DNA of 11,663 bases from Candidatus Heimdallarchaeota archaeon (GCA_029882335.1 JAOUKW010000097.1:1-11663), one strand, 5' to 3'; shown: positions 2,769-11,663, counted from the stretch's first letter. Notes: a model not told the origin generated them from the letters alone. A program made the numbers and translations.

Positions 2769-3392
2769 TCATTCATTTGATGACTCTATCGATTGAGGAA
2801 TATTATTGTGATTTAGCTGGATATATTTCCAACTGCCATTTGACTTCGATAATTTTATAATATCAGTGTTATATATGGTCTCGGCTGTTAAATTAAGATA
2901 ATAATTTAAAATTGCTCTCATAATCCCTCCATGACTAAATATTAATATTCTATTGAATTTTTTATTTTGTGAATTTTTAAGAATTTTATTAAACACTTCT
3001 GCAGCTCTTGATTTAAAATCGACCAATTTTTCTGCACCAAATTTACCATTAAATAAGTCTTCTCTTAAATAAGCATGTTCTCTGAATTGATCCTTGGAAA
3101 AATCTAATGTTGAAGAATGAATTCCCTCTAATTCGCCTAAGCCTATTTCCTTTAAATTATCCACTATTTCTAATTTTGGATGATCTATTTGGATTTTTAA
3201 GGCAATTAATGCAGTATCTCTGGCTCGTTGTAGGGGAGAAGAATATACCATATCATAATCTTTTGGTAAATATTCCCGGATTAATCTTGCCTGATGAATA
3301 CCTAAATCAGATAGGGGAGAATCAAACTGTCCCTGAATAGTTCCATCATTGTTTGATTTACTTTGACCGTGTCTTATTAGGTAAATTTCCAT
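2769..3392 (-). CDS. histidine phosphatase superfamily protein (phosphoglycerate mutase-like / CobC-like)
   Basis: The N-terminus reads MEIYLIRHGQSKSNNDGTIQGQFDSPLSDLGIHQA, with the catalytic RHG motif. SSPLQRARDTA and the C-terminal FSHGGIMRAIL (second catalytic His) follow. I placed the start at the ATG at 3392. The ORF track extends to a TTG at 3401, which is an alternative start. Confidence 0.85.
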   Translation of the reverse strand: MEIYLIRHGQSKSNNDGTIQGQFDSPLSDLGIHQARLIREYLPKDYDMVYSSPLQRARDTALIALKIQIDHPKLEIVDNLKEIGLGELEGIHSSTLDFSKDQFREHAYLREDLFNGKFGAEKLVDFKSRAAEVFNKILKNSQNKKFNRILIFSHGGIMRAILNYYLNLTAETIYNTDIIKLSKSNGSWKYIQLNHNNIPQSIESSNE

Positions 3393-3582
3393 ATGTATCA
3401 ATTATTTTAATTGCTTATATTACTTAGTTTAGATAGAATTTATTTATTCTTCAATTCAATAGAGTAATTTTCTTTTTTCAATAACAAGGAATATTATAAT
3501 TTAATAATAAAATTCTCAAAAAATAATCCAATAATTATTGAAATTTGCAAATAAATAAAAGCTAAAATCAATTTGTTAATCT

Positions 3583-4380
3583 GTGGAGTTTGATTGTTCA
3601 ATTGAGAAAAATAAAACACCATTTGCATCATTGGGTTTGCTTTTATTATTTTACATTATTGGGTTGATTTTCTTAGACACATCTAATTTTACTACACCGG
3701 ATACTTATAGAATGGATACATATACAATTAGAATACAAACACTTGATAGTTTTGCTTTACTTCCTGTTTTTAAAGTACAATGGTCAATATTGAGTTATTA
3801 CTTAATTCACTTTGCACCTGTTCATTACGGATATTCAGGTATGTTGCTGTTATATTATATGGTAGGCTTGGAAAAAGCTACAAATAAAAGAATTGTACTC
3901 CTAACATTTTTTGGAACCAGTATACTAACACCATTCATTTTTGGTCCTCCTCTTTTTATTTTGTCGGGTAAATATTCATTCCTTCTCAAGTTCTTTCTAA
4001 TTCAGTCTTACTATCTTGGTTCATCACCAGGTATTTGGGGTACCATTGGAATGAGTGCCCCTGTTTGCAGAAAGAGAAAATTTTTTTGGGTAGGTATCTT
4101 TTTAATGCTGATCCCGGAGTTTATCCTAAAGATAGTTGCAGGTACAGGAGATATAACTGCTAATGTCATCCACGTACTTATTTTTTTGATTACTTGGTTT
4201 GTCTCTCATAAATTTATTAAATACCATAATAATCATGGAAAATCAGGTGAATTAAAAAGAAATAGAAAAGAAGATCTACCCTATATATTTGGAATTTTAA
4301 TGCATGGGTTGATTATGATTATTTATTTTATTGACCAACTAGGTATTCTGAAGTCGAATATTTTAAGATATATTTTATAA
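3583..4380 (+). CDS. polytopic (about 7 TM) membrane protein, rhomboid-like
   Basis: 265-aa ORF with a GTG start. The first in-frame ATG (aa 44) would delete the first hydrophobic helix. About seven hydrophobic segments are visible. QWSILSYYLIHFAPVHYGYSGMLLLYYMVGLE resembles the rhomboid TM2 block (W..L...F.H....H...NM..L...G..E). YLGSSPGIWGTIG resembles the TM4 GxSGxxxGxxG block, with the candidate Ser at nt 4024-4026. ANVIHVLI provides a TM6-position His at nt 4171-4173. The 6+1 TM layout matches many rhomboids. Confidence 0.6.
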   Translation: MEFDCSIEKNKTPFASLGLLLLFYIIGLIFLDTSNFTTPDTYRMDTYTIRIQTLDSFALLPVFKVQWSILSYYLIHFAPVHYGYSGMLLLYYMVGLEKATNKRIVLLTFFGTSILTPFIFGPPLFILSGKYSFLLKFFLIQSYYLGSSPGIWGTIGMSAPVCRKRKFFWVGIFLMLIPEFILKIVAGTGDITANVIHVLIFLITWFVSHKFIKYHNNHGKSGELKRNRKEDLPYIFGILMHGLIMIIYFIDQLGILKSNILRYIL

Positions 4381-4525
4381 ATGTTACATTTTATCAAAAA
4401 ATCAATAGTCTAATTTACTATTTATTTAATATTATTTGTACTGAAAACTGTTATTCAAATTCTCTTTAATAAAAAAATATAAATAATATTTTCTATTAAC
4501 AAAAATAACATTTACATTTTTTAAT

Positions 4526-4530
4526 GGAGG
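4526..4530 (+). promoter_or_regulatory. Shine-Dalgarno-like GGAGG, 7 nt upstream of the TTG start of the surface protein gene
   Basis: The sequence reads aatGGAGGaaaaataTTGaaacat. This is the only strong SD-like element seen upstream of any gene in the window. It supports the non-ATG start at 4538, which preserves a complete signal peptide. Confidence 0.6.
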
Positions 4531-4537
4531 AAAAATA

Positions 4538-7500
4538 TTGAAACATCAAAAATTAACAATTAGTGTGTCTATATTTATAATATGGAGTATGTCACTCTCA
4601 GGATTGGTACCTGTTCAGAATGCTCAAGGATTTATTTCCTTGGATGCATCTAGATCTACATATCTAACCTATCTTGGTTATGATTATTTTGAATTAAATG
4701 CTATGGATGCAACTTATGATATAGCATGGTCGTTTTCGGGTTCAATAATAAAACCAGCAGCCTATGCTATGACCTATAATGACTTTGCATCTTTTGTTGA
4801 TACATATAATATACCTGCGACTGCAACAGTACTCAATGCAGGAGGTTTAGTATTTAGTGCTTCTGGGAATTTTATTCCTACCTCATCCGGTACTTGGATT
4901 ATTTTATTCCGTCATAACCAATCAGGTGTTGGGGGTGGATATGTTACGATTGCTGCAACTGCTACTCAAAACCTACCATATATTCAAAGTCATACTTTGA
5001 CAACATTGAATAACAACGCAGATGTGAATAACCTAGTTGATTCCGTGCGCATTACTTTTGATCCGAATATTGGCGGAGGTAGAACAGCAACTGCTACATT
5101 TACAGCATATTTATATGATTCAGACGATAATTATTCTGGTTTATCAAGCAGTGGATCGTTTACTTTTACCGGAACTCAAGTAAATAGTTTTCAATTAACG
5201 GTTGGCTATGTCACTGAATCTGATGACTATTACATTAAATTATATATGACCTATAATGGAGCAACCACTTTACAATTAACAACAATTGCAAATAGACTGT
5301 GGGAATTAGCAAGTCATCCATTTGTTGCATCAGCAGTGGTAGAACCGTATTCGTTTGATGGAGATGCTTCATCAGATTCGGCTAAATTTGCGATAAATGT
5401 AGATTTTAATACAGGTTACTCAGGAATAGTAGCAATTTACGCTGGGTTGTATCGAACAGGTGGCACTTTTATTAGAGGCGTCGGTTTTACTGATTATACA
5501 TTTACAGGTACAACTACAGCCGATCTTGTGAGAGTGGATTTAGGATCTGTGACTACGACATCAACATATTATATTTATTATCAGATAATTTGGAATAATG
5601 GCGTTGTCTCTGCAACATTTAATACACCTACTTTTTCATTAAATGCAGTTCAACCTGCTGCACCATTTTTACAATCCCTAACCACTACCCTCTATGATGA
5701 AGATACAGATGGAAATAATGATGGAGTTAGAGCAAATTTCAATCCTGATTTCAATGGAATGTATTCTGGTACGGCCACTGTAACTATTACACTCAGCTTA
5801 TGGAATGGTGCATCTTGGGTAACTCAAAATACACAGAGTTCATCATTCACTTTCTCTCAGCAGACTGTTGATGCATTTCAGATAGATATGGGGACTGCAA
5901 CAACTACTGGTTCTCACCGATTGTCGGGATATGTAACATTTAGTGGTACAAATAGTGCTACAGTTTCAACTGCTAGCTTCACTTTAAACGCGTATATCCC
6001 TCCGTCGCCATATATTGCAAGTTTAACCACCACTACATATGATTTTGATACTGATGGAAATATTGATAGTGTAAAAGCAAATGTCAATCCTGATTTTAAT
6101 CTTGCGTATTCTGGGACAGTAACGATTATAGCAAGCTTATATACATCTACAGGAACTCTTGTTACTTCACAAACCAGATCATATTCAACAACAGGTCAAG
6201 CTACCACGGTTTATACCATTGATTTAGGATATGTTTATACTACTGGATTATATTATGTACAAGCTCAACTTAAATATCTAAATGTATTAAAGGATACGAA
6301 GACAAGTACAAATTTCAATCTAAATGCCTATGTTCCTCCACCTGTTTTTAGATCTGTTAGTCATAGTACCTCTGATGCAGATGGTGATCTAAATGTTGAT
6401 ACACTTCAGATTAATGTTGACGCAGATTTTACACCTGGATATAGTGATAGTGTGACTATATTTGTTGAATTCTACAGACCTGATAATTCTCTAAGAAATA
6501 ATGTATCGCAAGTGGTTGTTGTTAACGGACAAGCTGTGTCTCCTGTTAGTTTTAATCTAGGTGGTGCTGATGTGAGTGGATTACATAAATACCATGCAAA
6601 AATATATTATCTTGGAGTACTTTACTCACATGCGATTGTTTCTATAGACCTAGATAAGGTAAAAGCCCCCCCAACTCTGACTGTCAATGGGGTTTATCTT
6701 TATGATACAGATAATGATCAAAATAATGACAGTGTGAATATATTATTCGATGTCGATTATGAACCTGGATACACAACTCAAGTCACAGTGAGTATAAATC
6801 TATATTCAGACTTAGGCGATTTACTCCAGTCATTCAATGTGATCTTAACGATTTATGGAAATATGGTGGATATTTTTAATGAAACAGTTTCAATTGCTCC
6901 AGGTCAGGGAGATTATTATATTACTGTGGCCTTATACCACCTTGGTTCTTTAATAGATGAACAAACTACAGCAAATTTCTTTTTAAATTCACTTTACGAG
7001 GAGCCTTATTTCTATGATTATTACTATGATCTGACAGATAATGATGATAATGGACAAAATGATGGTGTAATTGTTTATTTTGATGTTGACTATCCTGATG
7101 GTATTATTGATGATGTTATGATTATTGCTGAATTATATTTAGGAATGAATGATTTAATATCAACAATTAGTGGGAATTTTACAATAAATGGAACTGAAGC
7201 ATTGTTGAATGAATTAAACTTTGGATTTGTAACCGTAACGGGAGGTTATTTCATTAAACTTCATCTATATAAAGGTGATAATATAATAGAAAGTGTTTTT
7301 ACGTCTACATTCACTTTATACGCATATGAAGAAGCTCCTATTTTAGATCGTATAAATGTCAATCCATATCAATCTATAGGAGGTAATACAATTGATTCAG
7401 TCTCTATTTCTATATCTCCATATTTCAATATGATATCAGAAGGTTTAGTTACAATAAAAGTATTTCTCTATCACCAAACAAGTGGAACTATTATAAATTC

Positions 7501-7828
7501 GAATACCGATCAGCAGACAATTACAGATACTGCAATCACAATATCCTATGATTTAGGCAAAACTACAAGAGATGGACAACACTATGTCTTAGTTGAATTA
7601 TTTTATTTATCTACAACAAATCCAGATGTATCCTTGACGAGTAGTATATTCAATCTTGAATTAGGGCAATCATCGAATCCATCATCATCTAGTAGGAATC
7701 AAATAAGTCAAGATGTAACTGATGAAGGCACCAATTTAAACTATCCTTCATTTTGGGTATTCATCCTATCTTTTGGTGTTTTTGTCCTTGTAAAAAAAAG
7801 TCTTATCAATAAAATTAGGAAAAATTAG
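4538..7828 (+). CDS. secreted, C-terminally anchored cell-surface protein (S-layer/adhesin-like) with 8 tandem ~112-aa beta-rich domains
   Basis: 1096-aa ORF. The N-terminal Sec-type signal is MKHQKLTISVSIFIIWSMSLSGLVPVQNAQ|G. A unique ~116-aa head domain follows, then eight tandem domains. These are followed by a Ser-rich linker (GQSSNPSSSSRNQ), a hydrophobic helix (WVFILSFGVFVLV) and a basic tail (KKSLINKIRKN). The composition is rich in Thr, Ser, Asn, Tyr and Gly, with no Cys in the mature part. Confidence 0.9.
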   Translation: MKHQKLTISVSIFIIWSMSLSGLVPVQNAQGFISLDASRSTYLTYLGYDYFELNAMDATYDIAWSFSGSIIKPAAYAMTYNDFASFVDTYNIPATATVLNAGGLVFSASGNFIPTSSGTWIILFRHNQSGVGGGYVTIAATATQNLPYIQSHTLTTLNNNADVNNLVDSVRITFDPNIGGGRTATATFTAYLYDSDDNYSGLSSSGSFTFTGTQVNSFQLTVGYVTESDDYYIKLYMTYNGATTLQLTTIANRLWELASHPFVASAVVEPYSFDGDASSDSAKFAINVDFNTGYSGIVAIYAGLYRTGGTFIRGVGFTDYTFTGTTTADLVRVDLGSVTTTSTYYIYYQIIWNNGVVSATFNTPTFSLNAVQPAAPFLQSLTTTLYDEDTDGNNDGVRANFNPDFNGMYSGTATVTITLSLWNGASWVTQNTQSSSFTFSQQTVDAFQIDMGTATTTGSHRLSGYVTFSGTNSATVSTASFTLNAYIPPSPYIASLTTTTYDFDTDGNIDSVKANVNPDFNLAYSGTVTIIASLYTSTGTLVTSQTRSYSTTGQATTVYTIDLGYVYTTGLYYVQAQLKYLNVLKDTKTSTNFNLNAYVPPPVFRSVSHSTSDADGDLNVDTLQINVDADFTPGYSDSVTIFVEFYRPDNSLRNNVSQVVVVNGQAVSPVSFNLGGADVSGLHKYHAKIYYLGVLYSHAIVSIDLDKVKAPPTLTVNGVYLYDTDNDQNNDSVNILFDVDYEPGYTTQVTVSINLYSDLGDLLQSFNVILTIYGNMVDIFNETVSIAPGQGDYYITVALYHLGSLIDEQTTANFFLNSLYEEPYFYDYYYDLTDNDDNGQNDGVIVYFDVDYPDGIIDDVMIIAELYLGMNDLISTISGNFTINGTEALLNELNFGFVTVTGGYFIKLHLYKGDNIIESVFTSTFTLYAYEEAPILDRINVNPYQSIGGNTIDSVSISISPYFNMISEGLVTIKVFLYHQTSGTIINSNTDQQTITDTAITISYDLGKTTRDGQHYVLVELFYLSTTNPDVSLTSSIFNLELGQSSNPSSSSRNQISQDVTDEGTNLNYPSFWVFILSFGVFVLVKKSLINKIRKN
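4976..7669 (+). repeat. eight tandem in-frame protein-domain repeats (period 110-115 codons)
   Basis: Repeat units start near nt 4976, 5318, 5663, 6008, 6341, 6671, 7004 and 7337 (aa 147, 261, 376, 491, 602, 712, 823, 934). The shared skeleton is P(Y/F)(I/L)xS.TTT.YD.DTDGN.D.V.A.(F/V)NPDFN..YSGT.T(I/V)...LY....G......(F/Y)(T/S)..G.......(I/F)(D/N)(L/M)G.....G.Y(Y/F)(I/V)...L.Y.........T..F.LNAY.PP. Units 3 and 4 are the most similar to each other. Units are diverged at the DNA level and are not identical copies. Confidence 0.85.
7733..7825 (+). other. C-terminal tripartite sorting/anchor-type signal (short motif, TM helix, basic cluster)
   Basis: The last 31 aa read NLNYPSF-WVFILSFGVFVLV-KKSLINKIRKN and follow a Ser-rich linker. 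This is the same architecture as PGF-CTERM, PEP-CTERM, GlyGly-CTERM and LPXTG type signals. The motif itself (YPSF) is not one I can assign to a named class. Confidence 0.5.
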
Positions 7829-7927: not shown

Positions 7928-10624
7928 ATGAAGTTACTAAGATTAGTGGGTATGGGCTCTCAGGTTTTAAATGATTGGGTAAGAGAAATTATCTCAAATA
8001 TGTATGAGACTACATTGGATAGAGTTCTAGAGAAAATAGATAATTTTTTGAATCTAAATCTAAATAGTGAATCAAGCCTATCTCTCTTATTTCTTAAAAT
8101 AAAATGCCTTGAAGTAAAGGGTGATCATGGTGAAATATTAAATATCATAGAGGATTTACATCAATTCCCAGATCATACCTATCTCAAAAATATTTTCCAG
8201 ATAATTAAACTACAAATTGAATTATATACTAAAGATAAAAATGAAATTCTAAACAATGTAAAAATATTAGATTCCCTTAATTTAAACGGTGTGGATAAAG
8301 AATACTTAATAGAATTACATGGGGACATATTTGCATTACGAGGTGATTACAACAAAGCTATAGAACAATTTATACAGATTGATAATTCTGAATTTTATCT
8401 TGATTATGATAGGGAATATAGATTAAAAAATAAAATTGCTCAATCTTATCGAGAATTAAAAGAATATAGTCAAGGATTCAAATATGTAAATTCAATGATT
8501 GAGGATCAGGAAATAAACCGATATTCCCCTCAGCTAGCGATAGCACTTAACATTAAAGGAATTATTCTATCAGATTTGGGTAAATTTGATGAAAGTATAG
8601 ACTATTTGAACAAATCTTTGAGCATTAAAAATAGGTATAAGAATCCATTTGAAATTTCCAAAACTTATAATAATTTAGCCACCAATTATTTTTATAAAGG
8701 AGATTACATCAATGCAGAAAATTTCTTTTTAAAAAGCCTTGCAATGAGAAGAGCTACGGGTGACAAGAGAAAGATAGCTCATCTTTGTTCAAACTTAGCA
8801 GTATTTTATAATTACATCAATAACTATAGTAAAGCAATTGATTATTACAATGAAAGTATTACCTATTTTGAAGAATTAGGTAATGACATTGAATTATCTC
8901 AAGCTATCAATAATTTAGGTTTCTTACAATTCCAGAATCAAGAATATTTACAAGCTATTGAAAATTTTAATGCATCTTTAAAATTGCGAAAAAAAATAGA
9001 TAATGAAGAACACATTGCAGAAACATTATATTTTTTGGCATTAACCAAATATCGATTGGGATATTTCAAGAAAGCAGAAAAAATATCTGTTGAATTATTA
9101 AAATATAGGGAGACTGTTGGAAATAAACATCATCTTGCTGATACATTAGAATTACTCGGTGGATTATCAATGCATAAAGGTGATTTGTATGAGTCAATGC
9201 AATATTTTGATCGATGTAAGCAATATCGTCTTGAGATAGGAAATAATCATTTTACTTCTAATTGTTATATGGAGATCGCTAAATTACATCGAATAAAAGG
9301 TGAATATAATTTAGCCCTTGGTATGCTTACAAACGCATTGGAATTTATTGATAAATTACCATTAGATAAACTTAGAATTGATATTTCATATCAAATTGGT
9401 CTGGTACATTTAGAAAATCTCGATGTTACAGCCGCACAAAATACAATTGAATTAATGGAGCAATTAATATCAAATCAAGCAGATACACCTTCAAATAAAG
9501 TTCCACTTGAATTATTAAAAAATAAATTAAATAAATTGATATCAGGATCAATTGATAATATACATGTGAGAGATCTATATGATATTATTTTTAGTGGGAA
9601 AATAAAAAACATTGACCTTGTTTCGGATATAGTATTAAATTTATGTAGTACAATTACAGATGAGTTACAGCTAATAACAAATAAATCATTGTTTGAAAAA
9701 GCATTTAATTTACTTGCAAAATTAATAGAAATTTCAGAACAAACTGGTTCTCAACTACTATTATGTGAAGTATATTTATTGAAAGCTAGATTATATCTGG
9801 TCCAAAATAACCAAAATGCAATTCTTGAAAACTTAAATGAAGCAGAAAATATTGCTAATTCTCATGGATTGGGAGTAATAATCGACAAAACAAAGAACAT
9901 AAGATTAAATATAGGACTCTATACTAAGATGATTAATCTAAATAGAGATTTACAACGTTCTAATGAAGATTTGCAAAACTTTGTAGGAATAATATCACAT
10001 GATCTAAGAAATCCATTATCTATTATTGCACAATCAATAGAATTAATTAAAGTTCAAAATCCAGAGTTATTTAATAACAAGGACAGTCCAGTTACTTTCA
10101 TCGAACATAGTACTGAAAAAATTCAAAACATATTATCATCTATGGTTGAAATGTCTAAATTTAGAAAAATTGATCATCCTCATCAATTGATAAATTTCAA
10201 TGATATAATCACGAGCATTAAAACGATTTATTTGAAAGATATAATTAACACCACTGGAGCAAAAATCAATATAATAGGAGATTTTCCAGTTGTTTATGGA
10301 GATTCCACACAAATTTTTCAACTTCTACATAATTTAATTGATAATTCAATCAAATATAGAAAAATGGACGTCATCCCTGAAATTGTCATCTCTAGTAGAT
10401 CTAATGATATCGAAAAAGTAATAGAAGTCATTGACAATGGAATTGGAATCAATAAGAAGGATATCGATAATATTTTTAAAATGTTTCAAAGAGGGGAGAA
10501 TATTTCCTCAATTAATGGATCTGGTATTGGTCTCGCAATTTGCTCTCGAATCATGCAAAATCATAATGGTACAATTATAGTTGAATCTAATGATCAAATT
10601 ACTAAATTTATACTTACTTTTTAA
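7928..10624 (+). CDS. soluble TPR-repeat sensor histidine kinase (HisKA + HATPase_c at C-terminus)
   Basis: 898-aa ORF. About 650 aa carry TPR-like repeats, for example ALNIKGIILSDLGKFDESIDYLNKSLSI, YNNLATNYFYKGDYINAENFFLKSLAM and INNLGFLQFQNQEYLQAIENFNASLKL. A coiled-coil linker follows. The H-box is FVGIISHDLRNPL (His at nt 9998-10000), the N-box is HNLIDNSIKY, G1 is DNGIGI and G2 is GSGIGLAI. No hydrophobic TM segment is seen. Confidence 0.9.
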   Translation: MKLLRLVGMGSQVLNDWVREIISNMYETTLDRVLEKIDNFLNLNLNSESSLSLLFLKIKCLEVKGDHGEILNIIEDLHQFPDHTYLKNIFQIIKLQIELYTKDKNEILNNVKILDSLNLNGVDKEYLIELHGDIFALRGDYNKAIEQFIQIDNSEFYLDYDREYRLKNKIAQSYRELKEYSQGFKYVNSMIEDQEINRYSPQLAIALNIKGIILSDLGKFDESIDYLNKSLSIKNRYKNPFEISKTYNNLATNYFYKGDYINAENFFLKSLAMRRATGDKRKIAHLCSNLAVFYNYINNYSKAIDYYNESITYFEELGNDIELSQAINNLGFLQFQNQEYLQAIENFNASLKLRKKIDNEEHIAETLYFLALTKYRLGYFKKAEKISVELLKYRETVGNKHHLADTLELLGGLSMHKGDLYESMQYFDRCKQYRLEIGNNHFTSNCYMEIAKLHRIKGEYNLALGMLTNALEFIDKLPLDKLRIDISYQIGLVHLENLDVTAAQNTIELMEQLISNQADTPSNKVPLELLKNKLNKLISGSIDNIHVRDLYDIIFSGKIKNIDLVSDIVLNLCSTITDELQLITNKSLFEKAFNLLAKLIEISEQTGSQLLLCEVYLLKARLYLVQNNQNAILENLNEAENIANSHGLGVIIDKTKNIRLNIGLYTKMINLNRDLQRSNEDLQNFVGIISHDLRNPLSIIAQSIELIKVQNPELFNNKDSPVTFIEHSTEKIQNILSSMVEMSKFRKIDHPHQLINFNDIITSIKTIYLKDIINTTGAKINIIGDFPVVYGDSTQIFQLLHNLIDNSIKYRKMDVIPEIVISSRSNDIEKVIEVIDNGIGINKKDIDNIFKMFQRGENISSINGSGIGLAICSRIMQNHNGTIIVESNDQITKFILTF

Positions 10625-10994
10625 TTTTTATTCACTTAAACTACAATTTTTACAGAAATGGATATTTTACTCTGATAATTTATACATAGAGAAACTGAAG
10701 CTTGTAGGTAAATTTCTGAATTTTTGACAATATATACTAAATTAGTACTACCTAGGTTGTATTTAACTAACGATAAATGTAAATTCACCAATGATTAAAT
10801 TCTTAAGTATCCCCACCAATTATTTAATTTCAGATACTATAAGTCAGTATTACAAATTGATTTTTTTACCTAAGTCTATTCAGAGAGTGAATTTAAGTTA
10901 TCTCTTCCCATTTCATATACCATTTTTTCTAATATTTCCGATATTGTCTAGTTTTTTCCATTCTTCTGACACACTCCGCGTTCCGTAAATGTAG

Positions 10995-11004
10995 TTTTAT
11001 ATAT
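10995..11004 (+). promoter_or_regulatory. candidate archaeal TATA box for the 5S-like RNA gene
   Basis: TTTTATATAT lies about 30-40 nt upstream of the first base of the terminal stem (11036). A second TATA-like TATAGATAAA sits at 11012-11021. The background is so AT-rich that either could be chance. Confidence 0.3.
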
Positions 11005-11035
11005 TTTCTATCTATAGATAAATTAGAGAAAAGTC

Positions 11036-11184
11036 AATTCACAAGCCGGGAAAGTTAAGCCTTGCCACGAACGATAATACTAATATACGCGAGTTTTTGG
11101 GAAACTCGTTTGCTGCAAAAGGATTGCGGCCAAAGGGCGAGGGCTACACCGGGAAACATTCCGAACCCCGATAGCTTGTGAATT
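11036..11184 (+). rRNA. circularly permuted 5S rRNA-like gene including flanking BHB-like processing stem (predicted mature body about 11053-11172)
   Basis: This is a GC-rich island in an AT-rich spacer. Segment 11124-11166, TTGCGGCCAAAGGGCGAGGGCTACACCGGGAAACATTCCGAAC, matches the 5S 5' half (helix I 5' strand, loop A, helix II, helix III and the loop C CAUUCCGAAC signature). Segment 11050-11066, GAAAGTTAAGCCTTGCC, matches what normally follows immediately (GAAGUUAAGC plus the helix II 3' strand), yet it is encoded about 100 nt upstream. Four pairings are visible. Helix II is GGCGAGG 11136-11142 with CCTTGCC 11060-11066. Helix III is CGGG 11150-11153 with CCCG 11167-11170. Helix I is GCTGCAA 11112-11118 with TTGCGGC 11124-11130, capped by AAGGA. 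A perfect 11-bp terminal stem pairs AATTCACAAGC 11036-11046 with GCTTGTGAATT 11174-11184. Confidence 0.65.
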
Positions 11185-11207
11185 TGAGTGACTCAAGCAT
11201 TGTGCAA

Positions 11208-11213
11208 TTTTTT
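11208..11213 (+). terminator. oligo-T (T6) candidate terminator downstream of the 5S-like RNA
   Basis: The TTTTTT run lies 24 nt after the terminal stem. It is preceded by small hairpins (TGAG/CTCA at 11185-11195 and GCA/TGC at 11197-11205). Archaeal RNA polymerase terminates at T-runs. Confidence 0.4.
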
Positions 11214-11412
11214 GTTTCACTTTTTTCAAGAATAGACTTAATAAGCAGCTATTGCATAAATCTCCCATTCCTTTTGGTGGTTTGATTATTTTCATTACTG
11301 ATAAGGTTTGGTTACAAAGTGTATGAATTCCTGATGCATTGTAAACCATATGAATTTTTGAGCATTATAAATTATAATAATCAATTTGTATATAAATAAA
11401 TAAATAACAACA

Positions 11413-11445
11413 ATTTTCAAAATTTTTCAAAATTGTAGAAAATTG
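11413..11445. promoter_or_regulatory. three helically phased copies of (C/G)AAAATT, candidate operator or bent DNA
   Basis: CAAAATT starts at 11418, CAAAATTG at 11428 and GAAAATTG at 11438, an exact 10-bp period. TTTTCAAAATT occurs twice, at 11414-11424 and 11424-11434. The outer arms CAATTTT and AAAATTG are inverted. The element lies about 80-110 nt upstream of the ATG at 11522. Confidence 0.3.
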
Positions 11446-11491
11446 TTGAATAAGCGCTAATTTGAACAACAACAGAAAAAAAAATATTTTA

Positions 11492-11500
11492 TTTATATAT
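11492..11500 (+). promoter_or_regulatory. candidate TATA box positioned for a leaderless transcript of the downstream CDS
   Basis: TTTATATAT is centred about 26 nt upstream of the ATG at 11522. No SD-like sequence lies in between. An A-rich tract (11476-11484) lies upstream. Confidence 0.35.
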
Positions 11501-11521
11501 AATTCAAATAATTAGTATGTA

Positions 11522-11663
11522 ATGGTAACAGAAACCAACATATTGGATAATCATATTGAAGCTGTAAACAACAACCTAAACCCATTAGTTGTTGATATTA
11601 TGGTCAAACTCGATATGGATCCTGCAGATATAGAATACATGCATGAATTATCACCATATTTAA
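11522..11663 (+). CDS. hypothetical protein, 5' partial (runs off the window)
   Basis: ATG at 11522, then 47 stop-free codons to the window edge: MVTETNILDNHIEAVNNNLNPLVVDIMVKLDMDPADIEYMHELSPYL. This is not in the supplied ORF track, presumably because it is truncated. The acidic, non-low-complexity composition looks coding. No family is recognisable. Confidence 0.4.
   Translation, partial: MVTETNILDNHIEAVNNNLNPLVVDIMVKLDMDPADIEYMHELSPYL

Follow-up and report, generated by a model that had tools for sequence, protein, structure and literature searches.

We analysed an 11.7-kb stretch of the genome of a Candidatus Heimdallarchaeota archaeon (hereafter the window), to which all statements on the source genome are limited. 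Its G+C content is about 28%. Two genes of this stretch are the subject of the work, one for a membrane protein of 265 residues and one for a surface protein of 1096 residues. They lie on the same strand, 157 bp apart (4381-4537). An earlier note on this DNA had suggested that the two are a dedicated sorting pair, in which a rhomboid-like enzyme recognises the C-terminal signal of the neighbouring protein. The coordinates, the 157-bp spacer, the tail and the same-strand adjacency given there are all correct when compared with the open reading frame (ORF) list and the translations. We find that the membrane protein is a very divergent rhomboid and that the surface protein has the described architecture; a dedicated pairing of the two is not supported. 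The features of the two genes are as follows.

3583-4380, plus strand: divergent rhomboid-family membrane protein, 265 residues, seven transmembrane (TM) helices (6+1), from the ORF list with a GTG start
3808-3840, plus strand: TM2 motif HFAPVHYGYSG (residues 76-86; H76, H81, S85), aligned to HFSLMHILFN of GlpG
3865-3876, plus strand: GLEK (G95-K98) in the predicted cytoplasmic loop after TM2, aligned to AVEK of GlpG (G-x-x-x-E166-K), with E97 at the position of E166
4018-4050, plus strand: TM4 motif GSSPGIWGTIG (residues 146-156) with the predicted catalytic Ser148 and the stacking Trp152, aligned to GLS201G of GlpG
4150-4173, plus strand: TM6 motif DITANVIH (residues 190-197) with the predicted catalytic His197, which is invariant in the family alignment A2 (defined below)
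4381-4537, plus strand: AT-rich spacer of 157 bp, with a TATA-like TATAAATA at 4478-4485 and GGAGG at 4526-4530
4538-7828, plus strand: orphan secreted repeat protein, 1096 residues, from the ORF list with a TTG start
4538-4627, plus strand: signal-peptide-like N-terminus (residues 1-30) with a KHQK n-region, a hydrophobic core at residues 5-27 and then VQNAQG, read from the sequence
4985-7657, plus strand: about eight tandem repeats of roughly 115 residues each (residues 150-1040), from phmmer comparison of 115-residue segments with the whole protein
7664-7732, plus strand: Ser-rich linker GQSSNPSSSSRNQISQDVTDEGT (residues 1043-1065), from the translation
7733-7825, plus strand: tail consisting of NLNYPSF (1066-1072), a hydrophobic helix (F1072-V1085) and a basic end KKSLINKIRKN (1086-1096), from the translation and hydropathy

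The evidence that the 265-residue protein truly belongs to the rhomboid family, although it is very divergent, comes from transitive hidden Markov model (HMM) homology, profile-profile comparison and fold. The GTG is the only start that preserves the N-terminus conserved in the homologues, since an in-frame TAA stop lies at 3577-3579, the second triplet upstream of it. Direct HMM scans of the protein find no Pfam or NCBIfam family at E ≤ 0.1, and the gathering score of PF01694 (Rhomboid) is not reached. PDB sequence searches with the protein alone, or with the profile of its close group (alignment A1), find nothing significant. The HMM check suggested in the earlier note thus gives a divided answer, in that neither the Rhomboid model nor the rhombosortase model TIGR03902 matches directly, while the rhomboid assignment is reached through distant relatives. 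Seven relatives with 38-53% identity are found among 5.8 billion clustered proteins, and the whole family comprises 14 clusters when a HMMER profile is run exhaustively against 1.84 billion representatives. The A1 profile reaches the distant members P0016-P0020 at library-wide E-values of 1e-8 to 1e-13. These, together with P0011, pass PF01694 with 22.9-43.9 bits (gathering score 22.6), and the model is passed or reached by eight of the 18 aligned family members. When A1 is compared by hhalign with an alignment of the Pfam-Rhomboid-positive distant subgroup (A3), the probability is 99.7% with an E-value of 1.5e-25 over 209 columns. The 18-sequence family alignment (A2) matches E. coli GlpG, whose query sequence was verified against PDB entries, with an E-value of 4.6e-5, and the catalytic serines fall in the same column. 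This supersedes the comparison of A1 with GlpG, where TM2 alone was matched at 2.7% probability. The top PDB sequence matches of the A2 profile are all GlpG or iRhom2, each of them weak singly (E 0.1-2.5).

The fold points the same way. An AlphaFold2 model computed from the 18-sequence alignment has a predicted local distance difference test score (pLDDT) of 88.4 and a predicted template-modelling score (pTM) of 0.87. In a Foldseek search of the PDB with this model, ranks 1-33 are all GlpG (E. coli, H. influenzae) or iRhom1/2, with probabilities of 0.72-1.00, target-normalised TM-scores up to 0.68 and E-values of 0.01-0.7. From rank 34 the matches are unrelated folds with probabilities of at most 0.04. 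An earlier AlphaFold model from 8 sequences (pLDDT 67.9) had given no usable Foldseek result, with GlpG at an E-value of about 5. Hydropathy and the AlphaFold secondary structure give seven TM helices. Since the basic loops, namely GLEKATNKR, CRKRKF and the loop at residues 211-230, all fall on one side of the membrane, we predict an N-in, 6+1 topology with the active site facing out. The rhomboid-like character that the earlier note had read from the sequence is thus borne out by the profile-profile link, the Pfam-positive relatives, the fold and the intact Ser/His dyad. Its opposite outcome, a protein that resembles rhomboids neither in sequence models nor in structure, is not what we see, and the similarity is clear.

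The residues of the active site are retained in a family of low identity. Five residues, H81, E97, G146, S148 and H197, are invariant across the 18 sequences of A2, which are 17-53% identical. In the hhalign and hmmsearch alignments, H76, H81 and S85 of TM2 are equivalent to H145, H150 and N154 of GlpG, with Ser in place of Asn. G146-x-S148 corresponds to G199-L-S201, and W152 stands where GlpG has its stacking Tyr205. In the model, as in GlpG, TM4 starts exactly at the catalytic serine, here S148. By direct reading of the sequences, the spacing of N194-x-x-H197 is the same as that of N251-G-A-H254. The family also departs from canonical rhomboids at several positions. The position of the oxyanion Asn is occupied by Ser85 in the clade of the window, by Asn in P0016 and by Ser or Thr in others, and the TM2 His is invariant. 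H81 and Ser85 are predicted to line the oxyanion hole. The Gly after the catalytic Ser is replaced by Pro, Val or Ile, and the Arg of the WR motif in the L1 loop by Gln or Ser. In addition, the GxxxG of TM6 is lost and a seventh helix is added. Pseudoproteases typically lose the catalytic Ser (PMC3237569). Because the dyad is conserved here amid an identity of about 20%, an active enzyme is to be expected rather than a pseudoprotease. We suggest that the 265-residue protein represents a new and very divergent clade of rhomboid proteases and is probably active.

This clade is tiny and, as far as sampled, restricted to Heimdall-group Asgard archaea. The source metagenome-assembled genomes of its members are titled Candidatus Heimdallarchaeota or "uncultured archaeon". 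The named entries, HeimC2_30910 (Heimdallarchaeota LC_2), RMG30112.1 and MCH8908675.1, are all described as "hypothetical protein". Family members occur in GCA_001940725.1 (Heimdallarchaeota LC_2), GCA_964645535.1, GCA_026997455.1, JALUTL01 and WAKA01, and two ENA contigs of 1.6 Mb and 2.85 Mb encode P0029 and P0030. One homologue adjoins a gene for an Arf-like GTPase, which fits an Asgard origin. A further protein, P0014 (324 residues, from a 1.36-kb ENA contig), combines an N-terminal match to the glycosyltransferase family GT87 (E 2e-10) with a match of roughly the final 90 residues to TM5-TM7 of the rhomboid-like family (E 3e-15). The joint may be a real fusion, or an artefact of assembly or gene calling.

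The translation and hydropathy of the 1096-residue protein agree with the architecture that had been claimed for it, in which a Ser-rich linker leads to NLNYPSF, a single TM helix and a basic tail. They support a type-I protein that is secreted and ends in this linker, helix and basic C-terminus. Its N-terminus, MKHQKLTISVSIFIIWSMSLSGLVPVQNAQG, is signal-peptide-like. The tandem repeats are invisible to self-BLAST and are revealed by phmmer with --max. A calcium-loop-like motif of the DxDxDGxxD type opens five of them, at positions 387, 502, 613, 723 and 834. The protein has no Cys, contains 100 acidic versus 39 basic residues and has a high content of Thr, Ser, Asn and Tyr. It has no match in Pfam, NCBIfam or the PDB, and a homologue search among 5.8 billion proteins returned the protein itself alone. 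The G+C content at third codon positions (GC3) is 0.198, equal to that of the neighbouring genes. Thus, the surface-protein gene is native and not recently imported. We considered horizontal transfer of this gene and rejected it: its higher G+C content comes from codon positions 1 and 2.

The hydrophobic stretch of the tail is 14 residues long and eleven residues come after it. Neither the tail alone nor the whole protein matches any NCBIfam model of C-terminal sorting signals at E ≤ 10, and the models without a match include PGF-CTERM (TIGR04126), Heimdall-CTERM (NF045529), Loki-CTERM (NF033507) and GlyGly-CTERM. As a positive control, the tail of a 1132-residue protein from a related locus (L008) scores 25.9 bits on NF045529, above the cutoff of 24. 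No protein in a 5.8-billion-protein index shares three 5-residue words with the tail, which is a weak negative as the parent protein was also not returned. A tblastn search of JGI metagenome contigs gave 599 pattern matches, none of which was confirmed, and the recall of this search is limited. The anchored secreted proteins of the related loci have tails that are alike only generically, with a small residue, Phe or Trp, a helix and a basic end; these tails start with AGF, APF, SSF, NTF or SLW. As far as can be tested with the index, the JGI contigs and the CTERM models, the tail is found in no other protein, and for that outcome the earlier note itself had foreseen a plain membrane anchor. 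We infer that the tail is an ordinary stop-transfer anchor only.

The control protein deserves a description in its own right. It is encoded at 1566-4964 of L008, a contig of Heimdallarchaeota S146, 5 kb upstream of the family member. It is a Big_7 surface protein ending in LPVPGFEAYLALFAMIGIVVYRKRRF, and its tail also scores weakly on Loki-CTERM and PGF-CTERM. Since this tail passes NF045529, a named tail of the P-G-F type is in use in genomes that carry the rhomboid clade. We found no paper in the literature on Heimdall-CTERM, on Loki-CTERM, or on rhomboids together with Heimdallarchaeota.

If the two genes were an enzyme and its dedicated substrate, their adjacency would be expected to recur among relatives. 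We examined 13 other distinct genomic contexts of the rhomboid family, with the window excluded. In 12 of the 13, no tail-anchored surface protein adjoins the rhomboid-like gene on either side. The neighbours are instead a polytopic His-box membrane protein and an S-adenosylmethionine (SAM) methyltransferase (L001, L003 and L010), a cytochrome oxidase (COX) operon (L008), a His_Phos_1 protein (L004 and L005), an amino-acid permease (L020) or an AsnC regulator (L022). Secreted, C-terminally anchored proteins make up about 4% of the ORFs of at least 100 residues in these loci. Thus, one adjacent case in 13 is what chance predicts, and this is the number found when the window, as the discovery case, is left out. 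The loss of synteny in relatives, which the earlier note had counted against its own proposal, is therefore what we observe as far as it can be tested. A dedicated sorting pair is not supported: such a neighbour is lacking in 12 of 13 contexts, the tail does not recur and the family hallmarks are missing. Most likely the two genes are adjacent through an accident of gene order and do not form a conserved module of enzyme and substrate. Chance can explain this adjacency, but not the features of the two proteins themselves.

Some of these contexts have features of their own. In L001 (8698-11612) and L003 (8678-11613), the rhomboid-like gene lies 40 bp after a gene for a polytopic membrane protein of 420-427 residues and just before the gene for a SAM-dependent methyltransferase. 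The polytopic protein has His-box-like motifs (HVVRQHWG and GHNIQYH) and no Pfam hit. The three genes may form a conserved cluster. A His_Phos_1 gene adjoins the rhomboid-like gene in the window (2769-3401, minus strand) and in L004 (2131-2712) and L005 (2746-3327), where its relative orientation differs from that in the window; the relative encoded there, P0002, is among the closest to the window protein, with 49% identity. It is the only neighbour in other contexts that is shared with the window.

The spacer between the two genes also bears on how they are expressed. The GGAGG at 4526-4530 sits 7 nt ahead of the TTG start of the surface-protein gene. Since the spacer holds a TATA-like box and a GGAGG of its own, it suggests that the surface-protein gene may have its own promoter and ribosome-binding site and be transcribed separately. 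A scan of the region for sigma-70 promoters and terminators gave background level, and its result is uninformative for archaea.

Taken as a whole, the locus probably holds a divergent rhomboid protease beside an unrelated, plainly anchored surface protein, rather than an enzyme/substrate module. The product of 3583-4380 would be a catalytically competent divergent rhomboid with a Ser148/His197 dyad that opens to the cell exterior. The product of 4538-7828 would be an unrelated, lineage-specific surface protein that is exported via its signal peptide. Its repeat domains, about eight in number and bearing calcium loops, would be presented on a Ser-rich stalk, and its anchor in the membrane would be a plain stop-transfer helix at the C-terminus, followed by a positively charged end in the cytoplasm. 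The two genes would be transcribed separately and be neighbours by chance.

Several observations weigh against this account. Downstream of the distant member P0016 in L019, by 481 bp and on the same strand, are genes for surface proteins of 685 and 1261 residues. Both have TSP3 repeats, signal peptides, Thr/Asn-rich linkers and a TM helix, and they are near-identical to each other in this helix and in the YRMRRRML end. When the window is counted, two of 10-14 contexts have such a neighbour, which gives a P of about 0.05-0.14. Counting only large calcium-repeat surface proteins would make the coincidence rarer, but this criterion was chosen after the data. In the tail of the window protein, the helix is preceded by small residues (P-S-F) and interrupted by an S-F-G break. 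The predicted topology of the enzyme and the type-I orientation of the surface protein would physically permit cleavage, which holds for every type-I membrane protein of the cell. The recall of the tail searches is limited, and the metagenome scan with A1 missed a known JGI contig of the family, L005 (P0002). Finally, a many-to-one sorting system has most of its targets encoded away from the enzyme gene, so that weak synteny is compatible with a functional link.

L019 is the sole other context that resembles the arrangement in the window. The two surface-protein genes are part of the interval 8001-15467 (ENA ERZ25073868 ctg76048), where P0016 is Pfam-Rhomboid-positive, and a third TSP3 protein begins at 16691. 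We considered a kinship of the window surface protein with these TSP3 proteins and rejected it, as it has no TSP3_bac match, and FG-GAP_3 is the only model found, at E > 1. The tails of the two loci have no motif in common except that the helix starts with a small residue and then Phe.

The observations above could be read as the trace of a sorting system, either dedicated or many-to-one. In that case a rhombosortase-like rhomboid would recognise the tail of the surface protein, and perhaps other tail-anchored proteins. The helix would be cut at its outer end, either around S1071/F1072 or in the S-F-G kink, and the protein would thereby be released or passed to another anchor. The adjacency of the window genes on the same strand and the second case in L019, where a family member lies upstream of two TSP3 proteins with nearly identical tails, fit this reading. 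So do a type-I substrate and an enzyme predicted to be N-in with an outward active site and an intact dyad. TIGR03902 is also the commonest, though weak, NCBIfam match of the family (5 of 18, best E 0.006). There is a precedent in genomes that hold a single rhombosortase target, where enzyme and target are adjacent in 16 of 21 (Haft and Varghese 2011, PMC3237569). Nevertheless, we regard such sorting as unlikely. The other contexts mostly lack the neighbour (12 of 13), and without the discovery case the remaining one is at chance level. The surface protein is an orphan, no similar tail was found and no CTERM model matches. The tails of the window and L019 do not share a motif beyond the one noted above, the hallmark His at Ser+4 of rhombosortases is Trp here, and there is no Gly-Gly.

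Another alternative takes the tail as a signal and leaves the rhomboid out. The tail would be a degenerate archaeal P-G-F signal, processed by an archaeosortase-like enzyme encoded elsewhere, and the neighbouring rhomboid would be irrelevant. The layout is the same, with P-S-F, 13 further hydrophobic residues and KK. A Heimdall-CTERM protein, the 1132-residue control that exceeds its cutoff, occurs in a genome with the same rhomboid family, and other tails in related loci also begin with a small residue and Phe or Trp. On the other hand, the tail matches none of the Heimdall-CTERM, Loki-CTERM, PGF-CTERM or other NCBIfam models at E ≤ 10, it has Ser in place of Gly, and its cytoplasmic end is longer than usual. 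On balance this is improbable. A more far-reaching proposal is that the rhomboid clade is an archaeal counterpart of rhombosortase that clips or sheds large calcium-binding surface proteins at their C-terminal anchors, with the window and L019 as two surviving adjacent examples; we hold this to be quite a long shot. Finally, the 265-residue protein could be a rhomboid-fold pseudoenzyme or chaperone, similar to derlin or iRhom, which serves membrane-protein quality control and is not a protease, and its strong divergence from canonical rhomboids without a direct Pfam match, the change of the oxyanion Asn to Ser, the loss of the TM6 GxxxG and the L1 WR Arg, and the second rank of iRhom2 among the fold matches would agree with this, but the family, otherwise about 20% identical, keeps the catalytic Ser and His, the His of TM2 and an aromatic residue at Ser+4 in all or nearly all members, which makes this reading very unlikely indeed.

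The preferred reading, a divergent rhomboid beside an unrelated surface protein, extends the rhomboid family by a clade that is unannotated and unusually divergent. This is useful for annotating Asgard genomes, though not surprising. It also indicates that fold and dyad can be kept without the canonical oxyanion Asn and the GxxxG of TM6. Eukaryotic rhomboids of the secretase type, which are also 6+1, shed surface ligands. To our knowledge, no natural substrate of an archaeal rhomboid has been described, and we know of no map of surface-protein sorting in Asgard archaea. Processing of surface proteins by the rhomboid would matter, if true, for these two reasons. If the clade were indeed a rhombosortase counterpart, the pairs would be the first of enzyme and substrate to be described for an archaeal rhomboid, and they would come from the closest lineage to eukaryotes. 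The evidence does not lift the idea above chance, and it is of low probability, with one suggestive parallel in L019.

The remainder of the window holds the following genes.

4-2139: valyl-tRNA synthetase, archaeal-type (NCBIfam PRK13208, 737 bits)
2234-2758: small TPR protein
2769-3401, minus strand: histidine-phosphatase family protein (His_Phos_1)
7928-10624, plus strand: TPR-histidine kinase of 898 residues, with HisKA and HATPase_c domains after a long TPR array

The kinase gene begins 100 bp past the surface-protein gene. Its product has no obvious TM helix and is a soluble TPR-sensor histidine kinase; no response regulator is found within the window. A partial ORF at 11547-11663 (plus strand), starting MVTETNILDNHIEAVNNNLNPLVVDIMVKLDMDPADIEYMHELSPYL, runs off the end of the window. 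Between these two, in the ORF-free stretch 10625-11546, there is a G+C-rich island at 11034-11190 (plus strand) in DNA of otherwise roughly 27% G+C. The island folds as a closed multi-helix structure with the closing helix UUCACAAGC...GCUUGUGAA. The minimum free energy of 11020-11260 is -67 kcal/mol; the z-score is -2.85 for the plus and -1.17 for the minus strand. No Rfam family is found in the island at the gathering score, and no tRNA. The best sub-threshold Rfam match near it is 5S_rRNA at 11004-11121, with 19.4 bits versus a gathering score of 38. The island is a candidate for an unannotated non-coding RNA.

The two proteins can be compared with four known systems. In Haloferax volcanii, the rhomboid RhoII is described (Parente et al. 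2014, cited in PMC6098224) as affecting the N-linked glycan of the S-layer protein, and the description given there shows no cleavage of a tail. What RhoII has in common with our locus, by description, is that of an archaeal rhomboid with a genetic link to the cell-surface glycoprotein. The systems of archaeosortase A/PGF-CTERM, Heimdall-CTERM (NF045529) and Loki-CTERM (NF033507) are similar in the Pro-small-Phe that opens a short helix, in the basic end and in the large archaeal surface protein that carries them. A Heimdall-CTERM protein also occurs in a genome with the same rhomboid family. The difference is that the window tail scores on none of these models and has Ser for Gly.

The rhombosortase/GlyGly-CTERM system (PMC3237569; Gadwal et al. 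2018, PMC6219818) likewise places a rhomboid-family enzyme beside a secreted protein with a linker, a TM helix and a basic cluster. Rhombosortase (RrtA) is defined by TIGR03902, by a His at Ser+4 (S-G-M-L-H) and by near-perfect co-occurrence of enzyme and tail (PMC3237569). TIGR03902 does not match the 265-residue protein, and five of its 18 aligned relatives match weakly, with a best E-value of 0.0061. Its active-site motif is S148-P-G-I-W152, with Trp and not His at Ser+4, and this residue is Trp or Tyr across the family. The tail of the surface protein has no Gly-Gly and a longer cytoplasmic end, with eleven residues past the helix. The host is an archaeon rather than a proteobacterium, and adjacency is found in one of 13 other contexts. 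The 265-residue protein is not a rhombosortase, because TIGR03902 is unmatched, Ser+4 is Trp, the Gly-Gly is missing, the end is longer and the adjacency is not conserved.

The comparison with the GlpG-type rhomboids (PF01694, MEROPS S54) shows both distance and kinship. The 265-residue protein differs from them in the lack of a direct Pfam or NCBIfam match, in the Ser at the place of the oxyanion Asn and in the Pro, Val or Ile in place of the Gly after the catalytic Ser. It lacks the Arg of the WR motif and the GxxxG of TM6 and has an extra seventh helix, and its clade is tiny and, as far as sampled, found in the Heimdall group only. What the protein shares with GlpG is the six-helix core fold, the GxSx Ser at the N-terminus of TM4 and the TM6 His three residues after an Asn. 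It also shares the H-x4-H of TM2, the Glu-Lys loop after TM2, the aromatic residue at Ser+4 and the Trp that ends the L1 loop.

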